Assembly (NCBI GenBank): GCA_028824295.1
Contig: JAPPED010000033.1
Coordinates: 21,224-85,223 of the forward strand
Direction of reading: 5' to 3'
Length of the DNA stretch: 64,000 nt
Origin: Rhodospirillales bacterium
Lineage (GTDB): Bacteria; Pseudomonadota; Alphaproteobacteria; TMED109
The translations under genes and the position numbers were made by a program. Within the stretch, counting starts at the first letter, position 1. Each line of letters starts with the position of its first letter. Under the pieces are notes generated by a model. It was given only the letters and a program-made list of their open reading frames with translations, ran no database searches and was not told the origin of the DNA. Positions 3,730 through 64,000 of this stretch are shown here, in pieces.

Positions 3730-4442
3730 TGCTCGGCCCCAATTGTTACGCATGGCCGCATACGTTCCCAAACTCATGATGGGCTGCAGGTACACTTGGG
3801 CGTCAGTCTCAACGTGGGTCAGGGATCCCCGGCCGAGCTGCAACGGCGTCCGTCCGAAGCCACTGTTGGCCCGCTCGGCCGTCGGCGTGATGGTGGAAGG
3901 ATAGTGTTCGACCTTGTACTCGTCGCGCATCGCGTCGGTGGCCGAACTGACCGGACTAAGGCGTGTGCGACGGGCACCAATCCGCCGAGCGTGGTTGAAC
4001 GCGTAGGTGTGTGGCAACGTGTCAGCCGGCCCCTGCGCCCTCGACTTCGTGTATGTCCAGTTCTTCTTCGACTGCGCAGTAGTCGTTTCCGATTCGTCAG
4101 AAAACGTCACCCGGCAGGGTGAGCCCCTGTTTGCGGAGAATGCCGGTGGGCGCAAATGCGCCGTGGACATTAAAATCGTGGGAAGGCGTGTCCGCGGAAA
4201 ATGGGCCTTCTGCGAGCCGATCATGATGCTCATGCTCGTCGTCATCGGCATGGTCATCCCGTGGTCGTCGCCACTCCTGCGCCCGGCAGTGATCCGCTCG
4301 ATCCATACGCACTGATCGGAACCGACGGGTTGCGGCTGAATTCACCCGCAAGGCCGACGTTGCCGAGAACGCGCCAACAACGTTGCCGGAAGCGGGGAAG
4401 GGAACGTCGTCCCGGAAAAGCCCCACTCCGGCTTCCGCGCAC
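3730..4442 (-). pseudogene. Decayed, N-terminally truncated copy of the His/Asp-rich outer-membrane barrel gene (paralog of 5456..7114)
   Basis: Similarity to residues ~320-552 of the intact protein is spread over three reading frames. GLFRDDVPFPASGN matches GLFRGDDVPFAGSANG. WRVLGNVGLAGEFSRN..ISAY matches WSVFGRMGGDFGRNGAWRIGAY. DDHADDDEHEHH..VHGAFAPTG..LTLPGDVF matches the HD repeat ..VDARVTWAPTGN..ILQGEVFW. RRIGARRTRLSP matches FRIGARYARLTP. VYLQPIMSLGTYAA matches ILLQYIMSLGAHAA. The terminal Phe and stop codon are lost, so the frame runs into the binding-protein ORF. Confidence 0.65.
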
Positions 4443-4523: not shown

Positions 4524-5444
4524 CTAGTCGGGAATGGCCTCCAGCCGGGTCAGGATCTCGGAGAAGTACGAAAAGAGGTCCGTGACCTCGGGGAAGGAAC
4601 CCACCGTGGAGGGCAGCTCCACGAGCGGGAGGCCACTTCGCTCCGACAGCCATTCCGCGGCGTCGGTGGGCTCGTAATTAGCACGAACGATGGCCTTGAC
4701 TTCCGTCGAACGGGAATGTTGGAGCACTTCCTGAAGGTATGGAGCGGACGGCGGGATGCCGGGCACGCGCTCCATGGAGGTGACCTTTTCCAAGCCCAAC
4801 CAGTTGAAAAGGTAGGCCCAGAAGGCGTGCTGAACGATCAGCGGGGTGCCACGGAGCGCTTCCGCGCGGGGCTCCCATTGCGCCATTGCGTTGTCCCAGC
4901 GGGCATGGAAGTCCGCCAGCCGGGACTGGTAGGCATCGGCACGATCAGGATCGATTGCGCCGAGGCGTGCGGCGACCTCGCTGGCAAGCACCGTGATGTT
5001 GCGGGGGTCAGCGTGGACGTGCGGATTGCCGCTTGCATGGACGTCACCCATGCTGCGGTCGATGACCGTGGGACGTTCCAGGACCTCCACGTGTTCGGCC
5101 GCCATCAGGTGGCCCGGCTGTCCCGGCTGGATGCCCAGTCGTCCGCCCCGTTGCATCAGGACCGGGAGCCAGCCGACCTCAAGCTCGGCCCCGGAGCAGA
5201 ACAGGAGGTCCGCCCGGCGGATCTGGGCGATCAGGCTCGGCCGGGCGCGGATGTGATGGGGGTCCTGCCCGCCGTGCGTCGCGGAGTACACGGTCACGTC
5301 ACTGCCGCCCACTTCCTGGGCAAGGGAAGCCCACTCGGGTTCGCAGGCGAATACCCGCACCTCCGCCGAGGCCGGGAGCGTGGACAGGGCTGCCGCTGCC
5401 GCCAGGCAGCCCGCCACCAGGGTGCGTGTAAGGAAACGATGCAT
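4524..5444 (-). CDS. Periplasmic metal-binding protein, TroA/ZnuA family (copy 1)
   Basis: 306 aa. Signal peptide MHRFLTRTLVAGCLAAAAALSTLPASA. Motifs ACEPEW, QDPHHIR and SGNPHVH are typical of cluster-9 metal-binding proteins. GGAGGG lies upstream of the ATG. Confidence 0.9.
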   Translation of the reverse strand: MHRFLTRTLVAGCLAAAAALSTLPASAEVRVFACEPEWASLAQEVGGSDVTVYSATHGGQDPHHIRARPSLIAQIRRADLLFCSGAELEVGWLPVLMQRGGRLGIQPGQPGHLMAAEHVEVLERPTVIDRSMGDVHASGNPHVHADPRNITVLASEVAARLGAIDPDRADAYQSRLADFHARWDNAMAQWEPRAEALRGTPLIVQHAFWAYLFNWLGLEKVTSMERVPGIPPSAPYLQEVLQHSRSTEVKAIVRANYEPTDAAEWLSERSGLPLVELPSTVGSFPEVTDLFSYFSEILTRLEAIPD

Positions 5445-38521: not shown

Positions 38522-39214
38522 ATCGAAGCTCCATCGGTTCCATTTGGCATCCTAGCATGAAGCCGGAAGGAATCATTTATCGAACGTAGTATCACGGCCC
38601 GAGACATCCGGGGCAGCAACAGTCTCGTGAAAAAGTTTTGGAAGCCCGAAATTTATCCGGACAAATGTTGACGCGACACCGAAACGAAAGGGTTCCGTTC
38701 GAAACTCTGGTCAGCAGCAGCAAGGCGAACCGATCTACATTGCGACGATTAATGGAAGTTCCCCAGCTCTGAGAATCACTTGTCAGGCCGGTGGTGCTTC
38801 ACGAAGGTACCGTTCCCCGCCCATTGGCACGGAGACACGCGTGGCCGGCGAACCGGTCCGCATTGCCGCGATGACACGGAGCCTCGCGCCACACGCGCTG
38901 GACTGCAGCATGCCCTCCCCGGCACCGCCTGATCCCCGCAACTCCGGGTGTCAGTCGTGAAGTGGCCGGGATCAGCCTTCAACCAGCGCTAAGCGGCTTT
39001 TCGTGGTTGCTTGTCCGCTGCTCGCGCAGCAGTCGCGAGCGTGACTCACGGGAGCGACTTGACTGTCCCGGTGGATCGGCCGATTCCCGGGATCGGCGGC
39101 GCTTTGGGTCAAGCTGAACACCCGCCAAACTGACGGTCCGCGAAAATCTCGTCTGCCGGCGGCGCTGCGGCCTAATCCCGATGCCTGATCCGCGGGGGCC
39201 CAGGTCCGAGCCGG

Positions 39215-57641: not shown

Positions 57642-58706
57642 ATGCGAACGGATACGCGGATTCAGGTCGAGGGAACAGATCTAGCCTTCGACGCGGCTTC
57701 GGACCGGCCGGTCCTCGATTCCGCGCTGGACGCGGGAATTCGTTTGCCGCACAACTGCAGAGGGGGGATTTGCGGGACCTGCCGGGCAACGGTGGTGTCC
57801 GGCACGCTCGAGGCGGAGAGTTCGGTTCAATATGCCCTAACCCAACGGGAGCGTGAAAACGGTGTCTGGTTGCTTTGCCAGGCCCGCCCGACGGCATCAG
57901 ACGTCGTCGTCCGGGTGCACGCTCCGTTGCCTCCGCAGCCCAAGGCAGCCGACGCACGGCCTCAGACGTTTCTTTGTGAAACGGTCGCGAGCCGCCCAGT
58001 CACGCCGCGGGTCCGTGAGCTGGTCTTTGCCCTGCCGAAGACTGCCGGTTTCGTGTTCAAGGCCGGCATGCACGTGGAGATCGCCGTGCCCGGCATCGAA
58101 CCGCCGCGCACGTATTCCATGCTTGATGCGCCGGGTCCGGGCGGAAAGCCCGTGGATGGGCTGCTTCGGTTCCTGGTAGCCCGTCAGGCCCCGGGGGCGG
58201 CGAGCGCCTGGCTGCACGAGACCTTGCGTCCGGGCATGGTGAGCTCCCTGACCGGCCCGTTCGGTACGTTCGGGCTACCGGAGCGCGTGCCAGGGCCCAT
58301 CCTGGGTCTTGCCGGCGGAACAGGAATTGCACCGGTGCTGGCGGTCGTTGAGGAAGCCCTCTCCGCCGGCTTCAGTGCCCCGGTCACGCTGGTGCTGTCC
58401 GTGCGCGACCGGGACGAGATCTTGGCCATGGACGCCTTCAGCCGAATCGCGAGACGGCACGAGAACTTCGCGTGGAAAGTCACGCTGACCCGCGAACAAC
58501 CGCCGCCCGGTACGCGGTTTGGCACTGGCCGCATCCCGGACATGCTCCATCGAGTGCACGGCCAGCTCGCGCACCATACCGTCCTGATCGCTGGCACCCC
58601 GGGGTTCGTCGATGCCTGCGAAGCCTGCGTCCAGGCTTTGGGCGCTGCACCGGATCGAATCGCCGTCGACTCGTTCCTTCCGGCCGACCCCGGCACACCG
58701 CAATAG
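57642..58706 (+). CDS. 2Fe-2S ferredoxin / FAD-NAD(P) oxidoreductase fusion (ferredoxin-reductase type)
   Basis: N-terminal plant-type cluster CRGGICGTCRA...C; RTYS (FAD-binding) and GLAGGTGIAP (NAD-binding) motifs. Confidence 0.85.
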   Translation: MRTDTRIQVEGTDLAFDAASDRPVLDSALDAGIRLPHNCRGGICGTCRATVVSGTLEAESSVQYALTQRERENGVWLLCQARPTASDVVVRVHAPLPPQPKAADARPQTFLCETVASRPVTPRVRELVFALPKTAGFVFKAGMHVEIAVPGIEPPRTYSMLDAPGPGGKPVDGLLRFLVARQAPGAASAWLHETLRPGMVSSLTGPFGTFGLPERVPGPILGLAGGTGIAPVLAVVEEALSAGFSAPVTLVLSVRDRDEILAMDAFSRIARRHENFAWKVTLTREQPPPGTRFGTGRIPDMLHRVHGQLAHHTVLIAGTPGFVDACEACVQALGAAPDRIAVDSFLPADPGTPQ

Positions 58707-58895
58707 GTTGAGTTCATTGCTTGAGCTAGACGATATCTGGCCGATGTCCTGCCCGGCCAACGTTAACTGAAATTTACATTCCGGAAACGTCGCGACAACC
58801 TTCGGGAAATATTCCCTAAATGCAGGGTCCTTAAGTTGGAATCCCGAGGCTCCCGGGTTCGATCGGAGCCTCCGTTTCTCCGATAAGGAACCTGC

Positions 58896-60296
58896 ATGTC
58901 AAGAAACGTTTTTCTGTCAGTAACCGCGGCGGTGGCGGCGTTTGCGGTTGCGTTGCCAGCAATGGCTGCCGTTCCGAGCCTGGCGCCGGTGGTTGAGGTC
59001 GTTCAGCCGGCCGTTGTGGCAATCGAGGTGGAACCGGTTGCGCTGCCAGTTGCCAGAGATGAGCCCAGGACCCTGCCACGAAAAAGCCCATTCGATTCCG
59101 ATTCGTTCTTCAAGAGAGAGTTCGGCCAGCACCTGCCTGGGCCTCCTGGGGTTCCCGCGATCCCTGACGACCAATTTCGAAAGCACGGCGGATCGGGATT
59201 CTTCATTGATGCCGATGGCCACCTCGTCACCAATGCCCACCTGATTGGCCAGGGTCGCGACATTCGGATTCACACCACTGACGGGGACGTGCTGGAAGCA
59301 ACGGTAATAGGACAGGATCGACAGAGCGACATTGCCCTCTTGAAGGTGGACGTTGAGCACGCGGTTCCGTACGTGACATTCGCTGATTCTGACGCCGTGC
59401 GGGTCGGCGACTGGGTGTTCGCAATTGGTAGTCCCTACGGTTTTCGAGGCACGGTGACGACCGGCATCGTCTCGGCGCGCGGCCGGGATATCGGTGCCGG
59501 GCAGTACGACGACTTCCTGCAGATCGATGCACCCATTAACCGGGGGAATTCTGGAGGTCCAACGTTCGACCTGACCGGGCAGGTGGTCGGCGTCAACACC
59601 GCAATTTACTCGCCTAGCGGCGGCAGCGTTGGCATCGGATTTGCAGTGCCGTCCAATACCGTCCGCCTGATCGTCGCCGACCTCATGGATGACGGGAAGG
59701 TGGACAGAGGCTGGCTGGGCGTTCAGATCCAGCCGGTCGACAAGGATCTCGCCGCCGCTCTCGGACTCGACGAGTCGCGCGGCGCGGTGGTTACCGACGT
59801 GTCAGAAGGAAGCCCTGCTGCAACGGCAGGACTACGGCCTGGCGGCGTTGTTATCGCGATCGATGACTCGCCTGTTCGAGGGGCCAGAGACCTGGCTCGG
59901 CAGATCGCCCGCACAGCACCTGGCGAAGAGGTCGCCCTTACGATCTGGCGAAATGGGAGCGAAGACACGGTCTTGGTTCGCTTGGGCCGCCGGCCCGGAG
60001 CCGATCTGGCGACGCTTCCTGCAGCACCGGACGGCCCGGACCTGGGTCTGCAGCTGGGGCAAGACGACGGCGACGGCGCCCTCATTGAACGGGTTCGACC
60101 CAGCAGTCCTGCGGCTGCCAAGAGCCTGCTTCCCGGAGACCGCATTCTGAAAGTGGACGGCATCCCAGTGTTGGACGCACACGACGCGACCAGCCGGTTG
60201 GCGGAGGCGTGGGAGGCCAAGCAGCGGTTCGTTGTGCTTGAAGTGACACGCGGAATCGAGGTCCGTTTCGTGGCACTGCGTTTGCGGTACGCCTAA
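58896..60296 (+). CDS. DegP/HtrA (Do) family periplasmic serine protease with two PDZ domains
   Basis: Signal peptide. Catalytic-triad contexts TNAHL, DIALLKV and GNSGGPTFD. Two PDZ-like C-terminal domains. Confidence 0.9.
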   Translation: MSRNVFLSVTAAVAAFAVALPAMAAVPSLAPVVEVVQPAVVAIEVEPVALPVARDEPRTLPRKSPFDSDSFFKREFGQHLPGPPGVPAIPDDQFRKHGGSGFFIDADGHLVTNAHLIGQGRDIRIHTTDGDVLEATVIGQDRQSDIALLKVDVEHAVPYVTFADSDAVRVGDWVFAIGSPYGFRGTVTTGIVSARGRDIGAGQYDDFLQIDAPINRGNSGGPTFDLTGQVVGVNTAIYSPSGGSVGIGFAVPSNTVRLIVADLMDDGKVDRGWLGVQIQPVDKDLAAALGLDESRGAVVTDVSEGSPAATAGLRPGGVVIAIDDSPVRGARDLARQIARTAPGEEVALTIWRNGSEDTVLVRLGRRPGADLATLPAAPDGPDLGLQLGQDDGDGALIERVRPSSPAAAKSLLPGDRILKVDGIPVLDAHDATSRLAEAWEAKQRFVVLEVTRGIEVRFVALRLRYA

Positions 60297-60403
60297 CCAG
60301 GCGTGCCGCACGCGGGCGGTGATCGGCATCCAGCCCGTCACGATCACCGCCCGCCCCTAGGTTGCACGCGGGCAGTTCCTCCCGTCGCCCGCCTGCTTGT
60401 AGC

Positions 60404-60438
60404 GGCCCCGGTCATCAGGTGACCGGGGCCGTATTTCT
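60404..60438 (+). terminator. Rho-independent terminator downstream of the protease gene
   Basis: GGCCCCGGTCA-tcagg-TGACCGGGGCC followed by GTATTTCT. Confidence 0.75.
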
Positions 60439-60746
60439 CTGCCTGCAGATCTGACGTGACCGCGCTGGGTCCTTCTGTCGCGCCGGGTCGCGTCCGCCAG
60501 GAGGGCCGTAGTCCTCGCACGTGTCTTGGACGGGGCGATGCGATGGTTTGGCGTGATCAGCCCCTGAACACCAATACGGATTCCAGCTCAAGGAAGAGAG
60601 GCCACGTACCTGGCTCCGAAGCTTGGCAACAGATGCGGCCTTGCCCGCGACGTCGACCGCGGGGAATTTGGTGAAGAGAGCTGATCGCGCTTGCCGGCGA
60701 CCGGAGCCAGGAGGGCTGGCCCATTCCGGCAGGGACACTCGTGCGG

Positions 60747-61538
60747 TCAAAGGGCCGGCCGGTCCAGACCGGCCGGCGACAGGGTAAATACCTCGAATCC
60801 TTCGCTGGTCACGCCAAGCGTGTGCTCGAATTGTGCCGACAGGGACCGATCTCGCGTTACCGCCGTCCACTGGTCATCGAGAATCCGTACGTCCGGTCTC
60901 CCTGCGTTGATCATGGGTTCGATGGTGAAGAACATGCCCTCCCGCAACGTCAAACCGGTATTCGGCGTGCCGTAATGGAGGACGGACGGGGCATCATGGA
61001 ACACCCTGCCAATCCCGTGGCCACAGAACATACGGACCACGGAGTATCGCTTGACTTCCGCACAGTTCTGAATCGCGTGCCCTATGTCGCCGAGAGTGGC
61101 TCCTGGACGCACTGCCCGAATCCCTGCCCACATGGCATCAAATGTCGTGTCGGTCAGGATTCGTCCCTGCAGAGACGGCTTTCCGACCCAGAACATCCGG
61201 CTGGTGTCTCCGTGCCAACCGTCGAGAATCACGGTGACGTCCAGATTCAGGATGTCCCCGTCCTTGAGACGGGTGCCGTCCGGAATGCCGTGGCAGACGA
61301 CATGATTGACGGACGTGCACACGGACTTGGGAAAACCCTTGTAGTTCAGCGGCGCCGGGACTGCCCCGCGGTTCACGATGAAGTTGTGGCACAACTGGTC
61401 CAGCTCTTCGGTGGTTACCCCCGCCCTGACCTTCGGCGTGATGAAGTCGAGCACCTCTGCAGCGAGCCTGCCGGCCCTTCGCATTGCGGCAAACGCCTCG
61501 GCATCGTGAATTCGGACGTGTCGATGCAAATCATTCAT
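60747..61538 (-). CDS. map: Type I methionine aminopeptidase
   Basis: GFPKSVCTSVNHVVCHGIP...DIVNIDVT-like LNLDVT...HGIG...FTIEPM. Confidence 0.95.
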   Translation of the reverse strand: MNDLHRHVRIHDAEAFAAMRRAGRLAAEVLDFITPKVRAGVTTEELDQLCHNFIVNRGAVPAPLNYKGFPKSVCTSVNHVVCHGIPDGTRLKDGDILNLDVTVILDGWHGDTSRMFWVGKPSLQGRILTDTTFDAMWAGIRAVRPGATLGDIGHAIQNCAEVKRYSVVRMFCGHGIGRVFHDAPSVLHYGTPNTGLTLREGMFFTIEPMINAGRPDVRILDDQWTAVTRDRSLSAQFEHTLGVTSEGFEVFTLSPAGLDRPAL

Positions 61539-62254
61539 GGGGCGTTTCCCACGGGGTCCGTCACGGCCAGAGAACCTGCGACCCTAATTTCTTCCACCGT
61601 CAGTCGACACCCATACGCTAGCACCTCGATTCCGGCCGCGCGCGCTGCGTGGAATGCCTCCACGTAAGCCGGGTCAATGTCACCGGCGAGACGGAAGGCC
61701 GTACAATCTTCACGCTGTACCAAATAGAGCATGACAGCACGGTCGCCGCTGTCGACCCGCCGGGCGAGCTCGACGAGATGCTTGCGGCCGCGGTCCGTCA
61801 CCGAATCGGGAAATTCGGCGATGCCTGGCTCCCGAGACATGTGTACGTTCTTGACTTCCACGTAGCATGCCCGGCGGCGCGGACTCTCCAGCAGCAGATC
61901 GATCCTGGAGCGGGTTCCGTAACGCACTTCCCGTCGAACCGACGCGTAACCTGCCAGCGGCGCCAATTGGTTTGCGCGGATGGCTTCCTCGGCCAAGGTA
62001 TTCGGGCGGCTCGTGTTGACACCGACCAGGGTCGATCCGAGTCGAAGCATCTCCCAGCCGTAGCGCAACTTCCGTTTAGGGTCGTCGTTCGGCGCGAGCC
62101 AGGTCTCGACGCCGGCATAGGTCAGGCCCAGCATCGAGCCGGGATTCGCGCAATGCGCCGTGACAAGCCTGCCGTCTTCCAGTTTGTGGTCACTGAGGAA
62201 CCGCTTGTAGCGGCGCTGGAGACAGGCTCGGACGAGCGTTACGGGAAACTGCAC
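61535..62254 (-). CDS. sfsA: Sugar fermentation stimulation protein SfsA (nuclease-fold DNA-binding protein)
   Basis: GTG start: VQFPVTLVRACLQRRYKRFLSD...AHCANPGSM...CYVEVKNV. ATGA overlap with map. Confidence 0.9.
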   Translation of the reverse strand: MQFPVTLVRACLQRRYKRFLSDHKLEDGRLVTAHCANPGSMLGLTYAGVETWLAPNDDPKRKLRYGWEMLRLGSTLVGVNTSRPNTLAEEAIRANQLAPLAGYASVRREVRYGTRSRIDLLLESPRRRACYVEVKNVHMSREPGIAEFPDSVTDRGRKHLVELARRVDSGDRAVMLYLVQREDCTAFRLAGDIDPAYVEAFHAARAAGIEVLAYGCRLTVEEIRVAGSLAVTDPVGNAP

Positions 62255-62361
62255 GGGAAGGGTTCCGTCCGGTACCAGGAGGCGGCGTCAGCGGAGACTA
62301 GACGAACGGCGCGCGTCCGATGGCAAACGGCTAGCATGCCGGCGACCGTCCGGAGCCAGCC

Positions 62362-63120
62362 ATGCCGTCCCAACAAGCCCCCACTGCCGCAATGCTCGTG
62401 ATCGGCAACGAGATTCTCTCCGGCCGTACCCAGGACAAGAATGTTGCGCACGTCGCGAATCGGATGTCTGACCTGGGAGTGCGGCTGTCGGAAGTGCGGG
62501 TGGTTCCGGATGTCCGCGACCGGATTGTCACTGCTGTCCAGGAATTGTCATCGGCCTGGGACTACCTGATCACGACCGGCGGCATCGGACCCACGCACGA
62601 CGATATTACGACCGAATGCGTGGCTGCAGCGATGGGGGTCGAGGTGGAGCGGAACGCCGAGGCCCACCGCCGTCTCCGGGCGCATTACAAGGGTACCGAG
62701 CTCGAACTGAACGAAGCCAGGCTCCGGATGGCGGACATTCCAGTGGGGGCAACGCTGATCGACAATCCGGTTTCCGCGGCACCCGGATTCCGGCTGGCGA
62801 ACGTGTTCGTGTTGGCCGGGGTGCCGGCCATCATGAAGGCCATGCTCGCGGTCCTGGAGCCGCAATTGGTGCGCGGTCCGCCGCTTCGCTCGCGTACGCT
62901 CGTGGTGAATCGGCCAGAAGGGTTGATCGCAGACGACCTGGCAGCCGTCGCCGCGGAATATCCCGACGTCGATATAGGCTCATATCCGTTTTATCGCCCT
63001 CCTGATATCGGGACCAGCCTCGTGTTGCGTGCCACCGATACCGAACGGCTCGGCCAGTGTGCTGATGCGGTGCGTCGGTTTCTCACCCGACTGGGAGCAC
63101 CCTTCCGGGAGGAACCGTGA
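62362..63120 (+). CDS. CinA-like competence/damage-inducible protein, molybdopterin-binding (MoCF) domain only
   Basis: AAMLVIGNEILSGRTQDKN....A..L...G.......V.D...I......S...D.LITTGGIGPTHDDIT. Confidence 0.85.
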   Translation: MPSQQAPTAAMLVIGNEILSGRTQDKNVAHVANRMSDLGVRLSEVRVVPDVRDRIVTAVQELSSAWDYLITTGGIGPTHDDITTECVAAAMGVEVERNAEAHRRLRAHYKGTELELNEARLRMADIPVGATLIDNPVSAAPGFRLANVFVLAGVPAIMKAMLAVLEPQLVRGPPLRSRTLVVNRPEGLIADDLAAVAAEYPDVDIGSYPFYRPPDIGTSLVLRATDTERLGQCADAVRRFLTRLGAPFREEP

Positions 63121-63148
63121 GGGATCGTTATGATGTCGCTTGGGGCCT

Positions 63149-63458
63149 GCGGGCGTGGCGGAATTGGCAGACGCGACGGACTTGCAGGAAGTTGAGTGCC
63201 TGCCGGGAAACCGGCAGCGTAGAACCGCTCAAATTCGGGGAAAGCTTACCGGCATGGCCGATGCTGATCCCGAGCCAAGCCTGCTTTCGGGCGGGAAGGT
63301 GTAGAGACTAGACGGGCGGCGCCTGGGGCCGACACATCGGCGACGGCGAAGGGATAGTCCAGACCACGAACGCGCCTTCAGCGCGGCGGCGAAAGCCGAA
63401 GTGGTACGAAAATCCGTTTCTCCGGAGGAGAGTGAGGGTTCGAGTCCCTCCGTCCGCA
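63149..63458 (+). tRNA. tRNA-Leu (anticodon UAA) interrupted by a 225-nt group I intron; exons 63149-63183 and 63409-63458
   Basis: The joined exons give an 85-nt type II tRNA. Its parts are acceptor GCGGGCG/CGTCCGC, D arm, anticodon stem ACGGA/TCCGT, loop C-U-U|A-A-A-A, long variable arm TCTCC-GGA-GGAGA, T arm GAGGG-TTCGAGT-CCCTC and discriminator A. Confidence 0.85.
63184..63408 (+). ncRNA. Group I self-splicing intron (small IC3-like, no ORF)
   Basis: Core strings TCAAATTCGGGGAAAGC, CCGAGCCAAGC, GGTGTAGAGACTAGACGG and GGGATAGTCC match the Azoarcus, cyanobacterial and Tetrahymena group I cores as I recall them. Two GAAA-capped helices are present (CTGCCGG-GAAA-CCGGCAG and CGGC-GAAA-GCCG). 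The 5' exon ends in U, which can pair with GAGU at 63194-63197. The intron ends in G (63408). Confidence 0.85.
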
Positions 63459-63656
63459 CCCCGCCCCGCTCCGGCGACGGATGTCCCCGGAGACTGGAAC
63501 AGGGCGGGCCCGATGCAGCCCCCTAGTCAGTGTTCATGCGCTGGCAGGACCCGCGATCATGGGTCCTGCGAAGACAGCCCAATGCCCCGGCGGCGGTGCC
63601 CCCTGCGAACGATGGCCAACGGCGGGGCGGGCGGCGGGTACGGAACGAATGCCTGG

Positions 63657-63887
63657 TTACCCGAGCTTCTTGCCGTGCGCTTCCAGAACCCCCTTGTAGC
63701 CGGCGATCCGCTGGCGGCCAAGCTCTGCCAGCGCCGCCTCCACTTCCTTGGGATCGAAACCGTGGGCGCGATGAAATGCGTCTTGGTCCTTGAGGTAGGC
63801 TCCCTCCAATTCCGCGTCGTGCTCCATCCGTTCATGGAGGTCACGCAGCCGATCCAGCAAGGGGCGGTCGTCGGAGGTTTGGGACAT
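63657..63887 (-). CDS. Hypothetical 76-aa helical acidic protein
   Basis: From ATG 63887 with GGGAG 8 nt upstream: MSQTSDDRPLLDRLRDLHERMEHDAELEGAYLKDQDAF.... I cannot confidently assign a family. Confidence 0.5.
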   Translation of the reverse strand: MSQTSDDRPLLDRLRDLHERMEHDAELEGAYLKDQDAFHRAHGFDPKEVEAALAELGRQRIAGYKGVLEAHGKKLG

Positions 63888-64000
63888 CTGTTGTACTCCC
63901 TGAGGAATGTCGTCAGTCAGGTGGCAGTCGTTCGCCGTTGCGGTAGCGTGCCAACTCACGGTTCGAGTACGCGGACCGCACGGACAGTGCGTAAGGGACG

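Follow-up and report, generated by a model that had tools for sequence, protein, structure and literature searches.

A 225-nt group I intron between U34 and A35 of a tRNA-Leu(UAA) gene in a probably alphaproteobacterial genome

Described group I introns in bacterial tRNA genes

In bacteria, group I introns of tRNA genes are attributed by reviews to the cyanobacteria and to a few alpha- and beta-proteobacteria (PMC4033280, PMC11408192). For tRNA-Leu(UAA), the tRNADB-CE study considered 14 Burkholderia species in which tRNA-Leu(TAA) was 'missing' and reported an intron-containing gene for it in every one of them (Abe et al. 2008; PMC2686568). The locus analysed here, which lies in a 64-kb window (the whole stretch of DNA under study), resembles the Burkholderia genes in its host tRNA, in its proteobacterial host and in being missed by the standard tRNA finders. 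The Burkholderia and Paraburkholderia members that we recovered have the same 18-mer core, GGTGTAGAGACTAGACGG, and the same U34/A35 insertion site. However, their hosts are Betaproteobacteria, whereas the host of the window is probably an alphaproteobacterium, and the Burkholderia introns are longer (244-332 nt) and differ from that of the window in the sequences of P4, P9 and P9b.

Two other proteobacterial types are the Agrobacterium-type intron of tRNA-Arg(CCU) and the Azoarcus-type intron of tRNA-Ile(CAU), both of subgroup IC3 (Reinhold-Hurek & Shub 1992, cited in PMC4033280). Both share with the window intron an identical J6/7-P7 18-mer, a compact architecture and GAAA-capped P2 and P9, while their host tRNA, their internal guide sequence and their insertion point, after position 36/37 rather than after 34, are different. 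In the one Ile(CAU)-type intron that was read, the 3' domain is apparently a single GAAA-capped hairpin, in contrast to the three-way P9 domain of the window intron. Vepritskiy et al. (J Bacteriol 2002) reportedly described a group I intron of about 231 nt in the tRNA-Leu(UAA) gene of the Pseudomonas isolate SMCC D0715; it lies at the same point of the anticodon and is said to be closer to the Agrobacterium and Azoarcus introns than to the cyanobacterial ones. Its host is gammaproteobacterial, unlike the probably alphaproteobacterial host of the window.

The classical tRNA-Leu(UAA) intron of cyanobacteria and plastids lies in the same gene and at the same U34/A35 site, and has the same order of helices, including a three-way P9 domain ending in a GAAA hairpin. 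Introns of the cyanobacterial type are AT-rich, unlike the window intron, and their core, GGUGCAGAGACUCGACGG, shows two changes from that of the window, one of which is the compensated innermost pair of P7.

The split tRNA-Leu(UAA) gene

On the plus strand of the window, a tRNA-Leu(UAA) gene is divided into two exons. Exon 1 (63149-63183) comprises the acceptor 5' strand, the D arm, the anticodon-stem 5' strand and C32-U33-U34, and ends in ...GGACTT (A31 C32 U33 U34). Exon 2 (63409-63458) starts with AAAATCCGT (A35...) and comprises A35-A36, the anticodon-stem 3' strand, a long variable arm, the T arm, the acceptor 3' strand and A73. ARAGORN recognized the joined exons as a canonical tRNA-Leu(UAA) of 85 nt, and its output together with the reading of the sequence gives a cloverleaf with the long variable arm, anticodon UAA, A73, G18-G19 and the T-loop GTTCGAG. 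The junction between U34 and A35 would read ...GGACUU-AAAAUCCG... after joining. When introns were allowed, ARAGORN returned the same tRNA-Leu(taa) gene, with a 225-nt intron at 'gactt-Intron-aaaat'. Both splice boundaries are fixed without ambiguity, since a shift of one base either way spoils the mature tRNA sequence. CCA is not encoded, A73 being followed by CCC; as the tRNA-Thr gene of the window is also without an encoded CCA, the missing CCA is a genomic trait rather than a fault of tRNA-Leu(UAA).

A cinA-like ORF (Pfam MoCF_biosynth/FLAD1_M) ends at 63120, 28 nt before the tRNA gene. This gap agrees with the initial annotation, which had proposed the split gene by reading the sequence; its exon coordinates and end bases were exact to the base, and its joined halves do yield a canonical tRNA-Leu(UAA). 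Its central claim, that a 225-nt group I intron divides a tRNA-Leu(UAA) gene between U34 and A35, is borne out by the agreement of ARAGORN, Rfam model RF00028, a family HMM and covariation.

Default ARAGORN over the 64-kb window made no call at this site, its sole tRNA being tRNA-Thr(CGU), 24 kb away, and Rfam at gathering thresholds left the intron site unreported, with tRNA-Thr as the sole match. Detection of the intron-bearing gene needed intron-aware ARAGORN and Rfam in E-value mode. The meaning of the locus is thus mainly a matter of annotation: because both standard finders miss the gene, the genome could be scored as being without a required tRNA. Simple promoter and terminator scans of 62300-64000 gave nothing near the gene.

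Taken together, the gene anatomy and the intron properties described below make it very probable that this is a chromosomal tRNA-Leu(UAA) gene of an uncultured and probably alphaproteobacterial organism of high G+C content, carrying at U34/A35 a compact, ORF-less group I intron of the Azoarcus/Agrobacterium (IC3-like) kind, which would splice by the standard pathway. The intron is real and, judged from its sequence, almost certainly functional.

Structure and predicted splicing of the intron

The intron (63184-63408, plus strand) is 225 nt long, with a G+C content of 64.4% (window 63.6%). Stop codons occur in all six frames of the 225 nt and no ORF is present; it is therefore a bare ribozyme-type intron, and a mobile intron encoding a homing endonuclease was rejected on the same grounds. 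Its junctions, ACUU / ... G / AAAAUC, are those of the proteobacterial Leu(UAA) intron family.

The RF00028 model (Intron_gpI) matches positions 63174-63374 over its whole length (1-253) with 35.5 bits and an E-value of 2e-7 in E-value mode. The expectation of an RF00028 match was thus borne out in significance and in extent, but not in score, which is under the gathering score of 50, and so the intron is not reported in a standard scan. The plasmid copy and the intron of phage Atu_ph07 described below also score under 50, with 36.8 and 48.9 bits, respectively: the model under-scores this compact intron subgroup. The family HMM, built from 55 homologous introns with the window left out, gave one nhmmer match in the 64 kb, at 63177-63415, with 185 bits and an E-value of 2.9e-56. 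The two E-values and the single match in 64 kb led us to reject a chance resemblance to a group I intron. An assembly artefact was rejected as well, since the same pre-tRNA recurs in two independent metagenome assemblies, with 310/310 and 309/310 identity; the sole difference, G to A at 63188, is in the P1 loop.

We wrote a P1-P9 model for the window by homology and counted its pairs over an alignment of the window intron with 56 tRNA-Leu(UAA) introns found with the 18-mer (n = 57). Standard pairs occupy 96.6% of the 3,184 cells, compared to 26-43% after displacement of the 3' partners by 1-3 columns, compensatory changes are found in 30 of the 56 pairs, and none of 500 shuffles equalled any observed measure. 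The covarying helices are P2, P3, P6, P8, P9 and P9b, along with the anticodon stem of the tRNA itself. P7 is invariable within this alignment, because its 5' strand falls inside the search word. Five of its pairs are invariant, but the innermost one is seen to vary across lineages once the cyanobacterial-type introns (C-G) and the plasmid copy (G-C) are set beside the window intron (A-U). In the window intron no pair of P2-P9 is broken, and where it differs from the consensus, with C-G instead of U-A in P3 and G-C instead of A-U in P8, the change is compensated. The single-sequence MFE fold recovers P2, P4, P5, P6, P7, P8, P9a and P9b; folding energy alone is undiscriminating (z = -1.65). A P1-P9 fold with both P3 and P7 formed, which the initial annotation had made a test of its proposal, is thus well supported across the homologues.

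At the 5' end, P1 (63180-63197) pairs the exon sequence ACUU (63180-63183) with the internal guide GAGU (63194-63197) and places a U34.G pair at the 5' splice site. It was assigned from homologue pairing; the helix is 97.1% paired and the U.G pair occurs in 57/57 homologues. P2 (63200-63217) is a hairpin of 7 bp with a GAAA tetraloop, found in the MFE fold and with compensatory changes in six of its seven pairs. The P3 5' strand, CCGCUC (63225-63230), is followed by J3/4 AAA and pairs with the 3' strand GGGCGG (63314-63319); the helix is 99.7% paired with three of six pairs covarying, and makes the P3/P7 pseudoknot together with P7. P4 (63234-63240 with 63268-63274), 97.7% paired, surrounds P5/P5a (63244-63264), the whole element spanning 63234-63274. 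P5 is 100% paired, with G-C/C-G covariation across homologues, and both P4 and P5 are present in the MFE fold, as is P6 (63280-63295), a hairpin with a UUCG loop in which five of six pairs covary.

The guanosine-binding helix P7 has the 5' strand GAGACUA (63304-63310), with a bulged A and lying inside the 18-mer core at 63298-63315, and the 3' strand UAGUCC (63355-63360), assigned by family pairing. P8 (63320-63348) is a hairpin whose outer 4 bp, CGCC/GGCG, are 99.6% paired, with covariation in three of the four. The P9 domain (63363-63405) is three-way and consists of P9 (ACCAC/GUGGU; 94% paired, three covarying pairs), the P9a hairpin (63371-63385) and the P9b hairpin (63387-63398), which has a GAAA loop, is 99.1% paired and covaries in four of four pairs; both hairpins are also recovered in the MFE fold. 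The intron ends in a terminal guanosine (omega G) at 63408, the 3' splice site, which corresponds to the invariant column G233 of the 57-sequence alignment.

The three strings that the initial annotation took for group I core elements are found at 63229-63245 (TCAAATTCGGGGAAAGC), 63298-63315 (GGTGTAGAGACTAGACGG) and 63351-63360 (GGGATAGTCC). The GNRA-capped peripheral helices that it named are represented by the GAAA loops of P2 and P9b, and the terminal G at 63408 and the GAGT guide at 63194-63197, with its U.G wobble against exon ACUU, are likewise in place. By the established descriptions of the class, the window intron has the characters of IC3, namely an anticodon-loop site, compactness, no P5abc extension, GNRA-capped P2 and P9, and the shared 18-mer. 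The weak points of the helix model are P1, with only 4-5 bp, and P10, with about 2 bp. The internal loop of P8 also departs from the family: CCUGGG...CGACGG stands in place of the usual CCUAAG...UAUGG-like receptor of most relatives, and the L2-P8 tertiary contact may therefore be altered.

Group I introns are spliced by a standard two-step pathway, in which attack by guanosine is followed by joining of the exons. As judged from these elements, the precursor would be transcribed from the cinA-like gene or from just downstream of it, and the intron would adopt the P1-P9 fold, including the P3/P7 pseudoknot. P7 would bind a free guanosine, which would attack the phosphate after U34, marked by the U.G wobble of P1 (ACUU/GAGU). 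The terminal G at 63408 would then take over the G site, and the 3'-OH of U34 would attack the 3' splice site, joining U34 to A35. Since P10 is weak, the exons are probably kept together in part by the anticodon stem of the tRNA. Maturation of the tRNA would be completed by RNase P, 3' trimming and CCA addition. We infer that the tRNA-Leu(UAA) precursor is actually spliced in this way.

It is very improbable that the intron is instead a decaying relic that is no longer spliced, the present copy being a pseudogene and another gene supplying the tRNA. The non-canonical internal loop of P8 and the RF00028 score under the gathering score could be read as signs of decay, and the demand for the tRNA may be low, as UUA accounts for 0 of 144 Leu codons in five neighbouring genes. 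However, every core pair is intact, the departures from the consensus are compensated, the U.G pair is present, as are the terminal G and the residues of P7, and the exons form a perfect cloverleaf. Moreover, the only polymorphism between assemblies sits in a loop, and the equally low score of the plasmid copy indicates that the Rfam value reflects the model and not decay.

The genes flanking the split tRNA gene are of housekeeping type (htrA-like, map, sfsA and cinA-like), and among the loci compared the neighbouring proteins are best matched by those of alphaproteobacterial MAGs, at 47-61% identity. A cinA-like gene lies 0.8-5.6 kb from tRNA-Leu(UAA) in seven 8-kb loci from Alphaproteobacteria or Pseudomonadota. 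No integrase or transposase was called within about 3 kb downstream. This setting bears on another reading, in which the intron-bearing tRNA gene would be non-native, having arrived recently on a phage, a plasmid or an island. Such traffic is conceivable, because a related intron-containing tRNA-Leu(UAA) is present in phage Atu_ph07, related genes occur in tRNA arrays of IMG/VR, and another relative adjoins aac(3)-IId, with matches on more than 1,200 plasmids. For the window this explanation is nevertheless very unlikely: the G+C content of both intron and exons matches the host, the flanking genes are of housekeeping type, with no mobility gene called in about 3 kb downstream, the cinA-like neighbourhood is common to other Alphaproteobacteria, and there is no nearby tRNA, the only other one in the 64 kb being the distant tRNA-Thr. 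Based on the G+C content of the intron, which is that of the window, the housekeeping flanks and the shared cinA-like neighbourhood, we read the locus as a native chromosomal gene.

Relationships and spread of the intron family

We calculated Jukes-Cantor distances from the window intron over 197 well-aligned columns, with 20 Leu introns representing the cyanobacterial type. The median distance is 0.29 (minimum 0.18) to the proteobacterial Leu(UAA) introns, 0.27 to the Arg(CCU) introns, which fall inside the sequence cluster of the window intron, 0.60 to the more distant Ile/Met(CAU) introns and 0.68 to the cyanobacterial-type Leu introns. The cyanobacterial type is separate in 96 of 100 bootstraps, a split that is favoured by the different exact words with which the proteobacterial and cyanobacterial sets were drawn; resolution within the proteobacterial cluster is poor. 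In the phylogenetic placement that the initial annotation had called for, the window intron accordingly clusters with the proteobacterial Leu(UAA) and Arg(CCU) introns, apart from the cyanobacterial Leu introns. An origin from cyanobacteria, with the intron as a member of the classical cyanobacterial/plastid tRNA-Leu(UAA) lineage, is suggested by the common U34/A35 site and the common P1-P9 architecture with its three-way P9 domain, yet is exceedingly unlikely in view of these distances, the bootstrap separation (favoured as it is by the 18-mers), the two differences in the core 18-mer and the very different base composition.

Outside the organism's own assemblies, the nearest introns among the fetched sequences are about 80% identical over the whole length and 87% identical over the aligned columns. 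The window intron is therefore a distinct member of a known family. The family extends widely: the 18-mer GGTGTAGAGACTAGACGG is present in at least 120 species-representative bacterial genomes, and about 79-82 of the 121 matches listed are tRNA-Leu(UAA) genes with a U34/A35 intron. ARAGORN labelled 61 of the 121 listed matches as tRNA-Leu(UAA) with an intron, and the splice-junction signature revealed 21 further ones that had been mislabelled as Ser, Phe or Ile. The host-tRNA labels of ARAGORN are unreliable here (Ser(AGA/GGA), Phe(GAA/AAA), 'Stop(UUA)') owing to shifted intron boundaries, and the mislabelled loci were reclassified by the signature. The remaining listed matches are in Arg(CCU), Ile/Met(CAU), Arg(UCU), Thr and other tRNA genes, so that tRNA-Leu(UAA) is the commonest host of the family among the matches listed.

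Among these matches, the hosts of the Leu(UAA) intron are mostly Alpha-, Beta- and Gammaproteobacteria and Acidobacteriota; they include Bradyrhizobium, Sphingomonas, Paracoccus, Rhodobacter, Brevundimonas, Azospirillum, Burkholderia/Paraburkholderia, Halioglobus and Microbulbifer, as well as Acidobacteriota and Bacteroidota. The exact 18-mer also occurs in the introns of betaproteobacterial tRNA-Ile(CAU) genes of the Azoarcus type and of alphaproteobacterial tRNA-Arg(CCU) genes, in line with the statement in the initial annotation that the J6/7-P7 string is identical to that of Azoarcus. On the other hand, the rarity that it implied, by placing the known proteobacterial introns in other tRNAs, does not stand, since Leu(UAA) makes up about two thirds of the listed 18-mer matches and was reported in Burkholderia in 2008. 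The arrangement is common, has already been reported in Proteobacteria and is an ordinary one that mostly escapes annotation; the window intron adds one member.

A metagenome scan with GGTGCAGAGACTCGACGG, the core variant of Anabaena, yielded at least 120 loci; in at least 73 of them an AT-rich tRNA-Leu(UAA) gene is interrupted by an intron at U34/A35. In 73 cyanobacterial-type genes the junctions read ggactt / intron / aaaatcc, and the claim that the window intron shares its insertion point with the cyanobacterial/plastid intron is correct. The 'few alpha-/beta-proteobacteria' of the reviews may thus be set against at least 120 species genomes, at least 120 metagenome loci (cyanobacterial variant) and at least 120 viral contigs.

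A tentative possibility, which we put forward as less likely than its contrary, is that tRNA-Leu(UAA) is the main home of the compact intron family across non-cyanobacterial bacteria, that this family is almost wholly unannotated, and that it is dispersed together with its host genes, as complete split tRNA genes, on phage tRNA arrays and even on clinical resistance plasmids. In that case, the 'ancient' tRNA-Leu intron of cyanobacteria and plastids would be just one branch of a much larger population that moves horizontally, and the case classically made for its antiquity would have to be reconsidered. More speculatively still, splicing may control how much of a rare-codon tRNA is available in genomes of high G+C content, UUA being absent from the 144 Leu codons of the five neighbouring genes.

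The relatives on plasmids and phages may be worth more than the window intron itself. A 'distant' BLAST of the window pre-tRNA against PLSDB gave full-length matches, at about 78.5% identity, on 1,275 plasmids. A common module of the order IS26 - aac(3)-IId - tmrB-like ATPase - tRNA copy (where no feature is annotated) - two small ORFs - DUF3883 - ISCfr1 surrounds the tRNA copy in pCTX-M3, in a V. cholerae IncC plasmid and in an E. coli chromosome. On an Acinetobacter nosocomialis plasmid, the match is separated by about 1.1 kb from a predicted partial aac(3)-IId, and the flanking element there is IS1006. The plasmid copy is a tRNA-Leu(UAA) gene with a 221-nt intron, in which all helices are intact and the P7 pair is compensated. 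At 99% identity or more, it is present in 636 of 5,426 complete E. coli genomes (12%), and none of the 12 matches listed coincides with an annotated feature. The closest relatives of the plasmid copy, at a distance of 0.12, belong to Alphaproteobacteria, and its exon 1 is identical to that of a Stellaceae MAG. A tblastn search of AAC(3)-IId, TmrB, the two small ORFs and the DUF3883 protein against 364 loci gave no match and no lead to a donor; only the tRNA and its intron are therefore common to the plasmid module and these loci. Our literature search found no paper joining tmrB and a group I intron.

In viral sequences, the 18-mer occurs in at least 120 IMG/VR contigs, and 47 of those listed carry Leu(UAA) with an intron; many of the intron-bearing loci sit within arrays of up to 30 tRNA genes. 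Two cultured phages also contain such genes. In the Agrobacterium jumbo phage Atu_ph07, a tRNA-Leu(UAA) gene that is not annotated carries a 278-nt group I intron (the RF00028 match of 48.9 bits given above), and in the Gordonia phage Daredevil a tRNA-Lys(UUU) gene is interrupted by a 238-nt intron. The intron-containing tRNA genes of both phages contrast with a 2014 review, which places every phage group I intron known at that time in a protein-coding gene (PMC3984707).

Intron-bearing tRNA-Leu(UAA) genes on resistance plasmids and in E. coli

The aac(3)-IId module on plasmids contains a tRNA-Leu(UAA) gene that has escaped annotation and is interrupted by a 221-nt group I intron whose structure is intact. 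In pCTX-M3 (NC_004464.2), this gene lies at 61823–62118 (5001–5296 of locus L124), and further copies of the plasmid type were located at 4001–4296 of locus L246, 4001–4296 of L247 and 1111–1407 of L125. It is flanked on one side by the tmrB-like ATPase gene adjacent to aac(3)-IId and on the other by two small ORFs/DUF3883, and the module enclosing both aac(3)-IId and the tRNA gene is bounded by IS26 and ISCfr1. Altogether, 1,275 PLSDB plasmids carry this gene, with hosts including Escherichia, Klebsiella, Salmonella and Acinetobacter. Its closest relatives are alphaproteobacterial, a kinship that may offer a clue to where the aac(3)-II module came from.

Apart from its phages, E. coli is generally regarded as free of group I introns. 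The plasmid-type gene is present at ≥99% identity in 636 of the 5,426 complete E. coli genomes, where it occupies 589 plasmid and 82 chromosomal places, as exemplified by NZ_CP032204.1 (1089749–1090044, the L247 copy). Among the 12 E. coli matches listed, no annotated feature underlies the gene.

Phages and viral contigs

The 18-mer core, the J6/7-P7 string of the window intron, is present in at least 120 IMG/VR viral contigs. Of these, 47 carry a tRNA-Leu(UAA) gene with an intron; at 32 of the 18-mer matches there was no tRNA call. Some of the IMG/VR contigs are predicted prophages, in which host tRNA genes could be included. Nineteen of the 29 IMG/VR loci with the splice-junction signature of tRNA-Leu(UAA) intron genes are situated inside arrays with 3 to 30 other tRNA genes, an arrangement typical of phage tRNA clusters.

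The Agrobacterium jumbo phage Atu_ph07 has a 278-nt group I intron in an unannotated tRNA-Leu(UAA) gene, inserted at the same U34/A35 site as in the window. The gene (L248, 1496–1857; MF403008.1, ~112.9–113.3 kb) sits in a gap separating hypothetical genes, and its intron matches the Rfam group I model RF00028 with 48.9 bits, slightly below the gathering score. Separately, the ARAGORN call and a reading of the junction identified a tRNA-Lys(UUU) gene split by a 238-nt intron of the window-intron family in the actinophage Daredevil of Gordonia (NC_048021.1, 41852–42084; IMG/VR copy, L295).

Detection in species genomes

The Leu(UAA) intron genes of the 120 loci from GTDB species genomes go entirely undetected by tRNA finders at default settings and by Rfam at its gathering thresholds. 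Intron-aware ARAGORN misplaces the intron boundaries and therefore gives many of them wrong labels: Ser(AGA/GGA), Phe(GAA/AAA), Ile(GAU) or 'Stop(UUA)'. Putative further hosts of the window-intron family among these loci are tRNA-Arg(UCU) in Vibrio agarilyticus and Rhodothermaceae, Thr(GGU/CGU) and other calls.

The window intron and its tRNA gene

A loose form of the CCUAAG...UAUGG-like tetraloop-receptor motif is found in 41 of 57 relatives, whereas P8 of the window intron (63320–63348) instead has the internal loop CCUGGG...CGACGG. L2 remains GAAA. Given this departure from the receptor motif, the L2–P8 contact may be altered. The L088 intron has a CCUGGG variant resembling this loop.

Unlike most relatives' Leu genes, which end in CCA, the window tRNA-Leu(UAA) gene does not encode it (A73 is followed by CCC at 63459–63461); nor does the window tRNA-Thr(CGU) gene (CCG at 39212–39214). 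The organism must therefore rely on a CCA-adding enzyme.

The interval from the tRNA-Leu(UAA) gene to a small, convergently oriented gene (63657–63887) contains a G+C-rich hairpin (63544–63569) with a perfect 9-bp stem, GCAGGACCC / GGGTCCTGC, and an 8-nt loop; it lacks a T-run on both strands, and the terminator scan gave no call there.

In the five genes adjoining the tRNA (57642–63120), UUA accounts for 0 and UUG for 26 of 144 leucine codons. If a tRNA-Leu(CAA) also exists, the intron-bearing tRNA reads a very rare codon.
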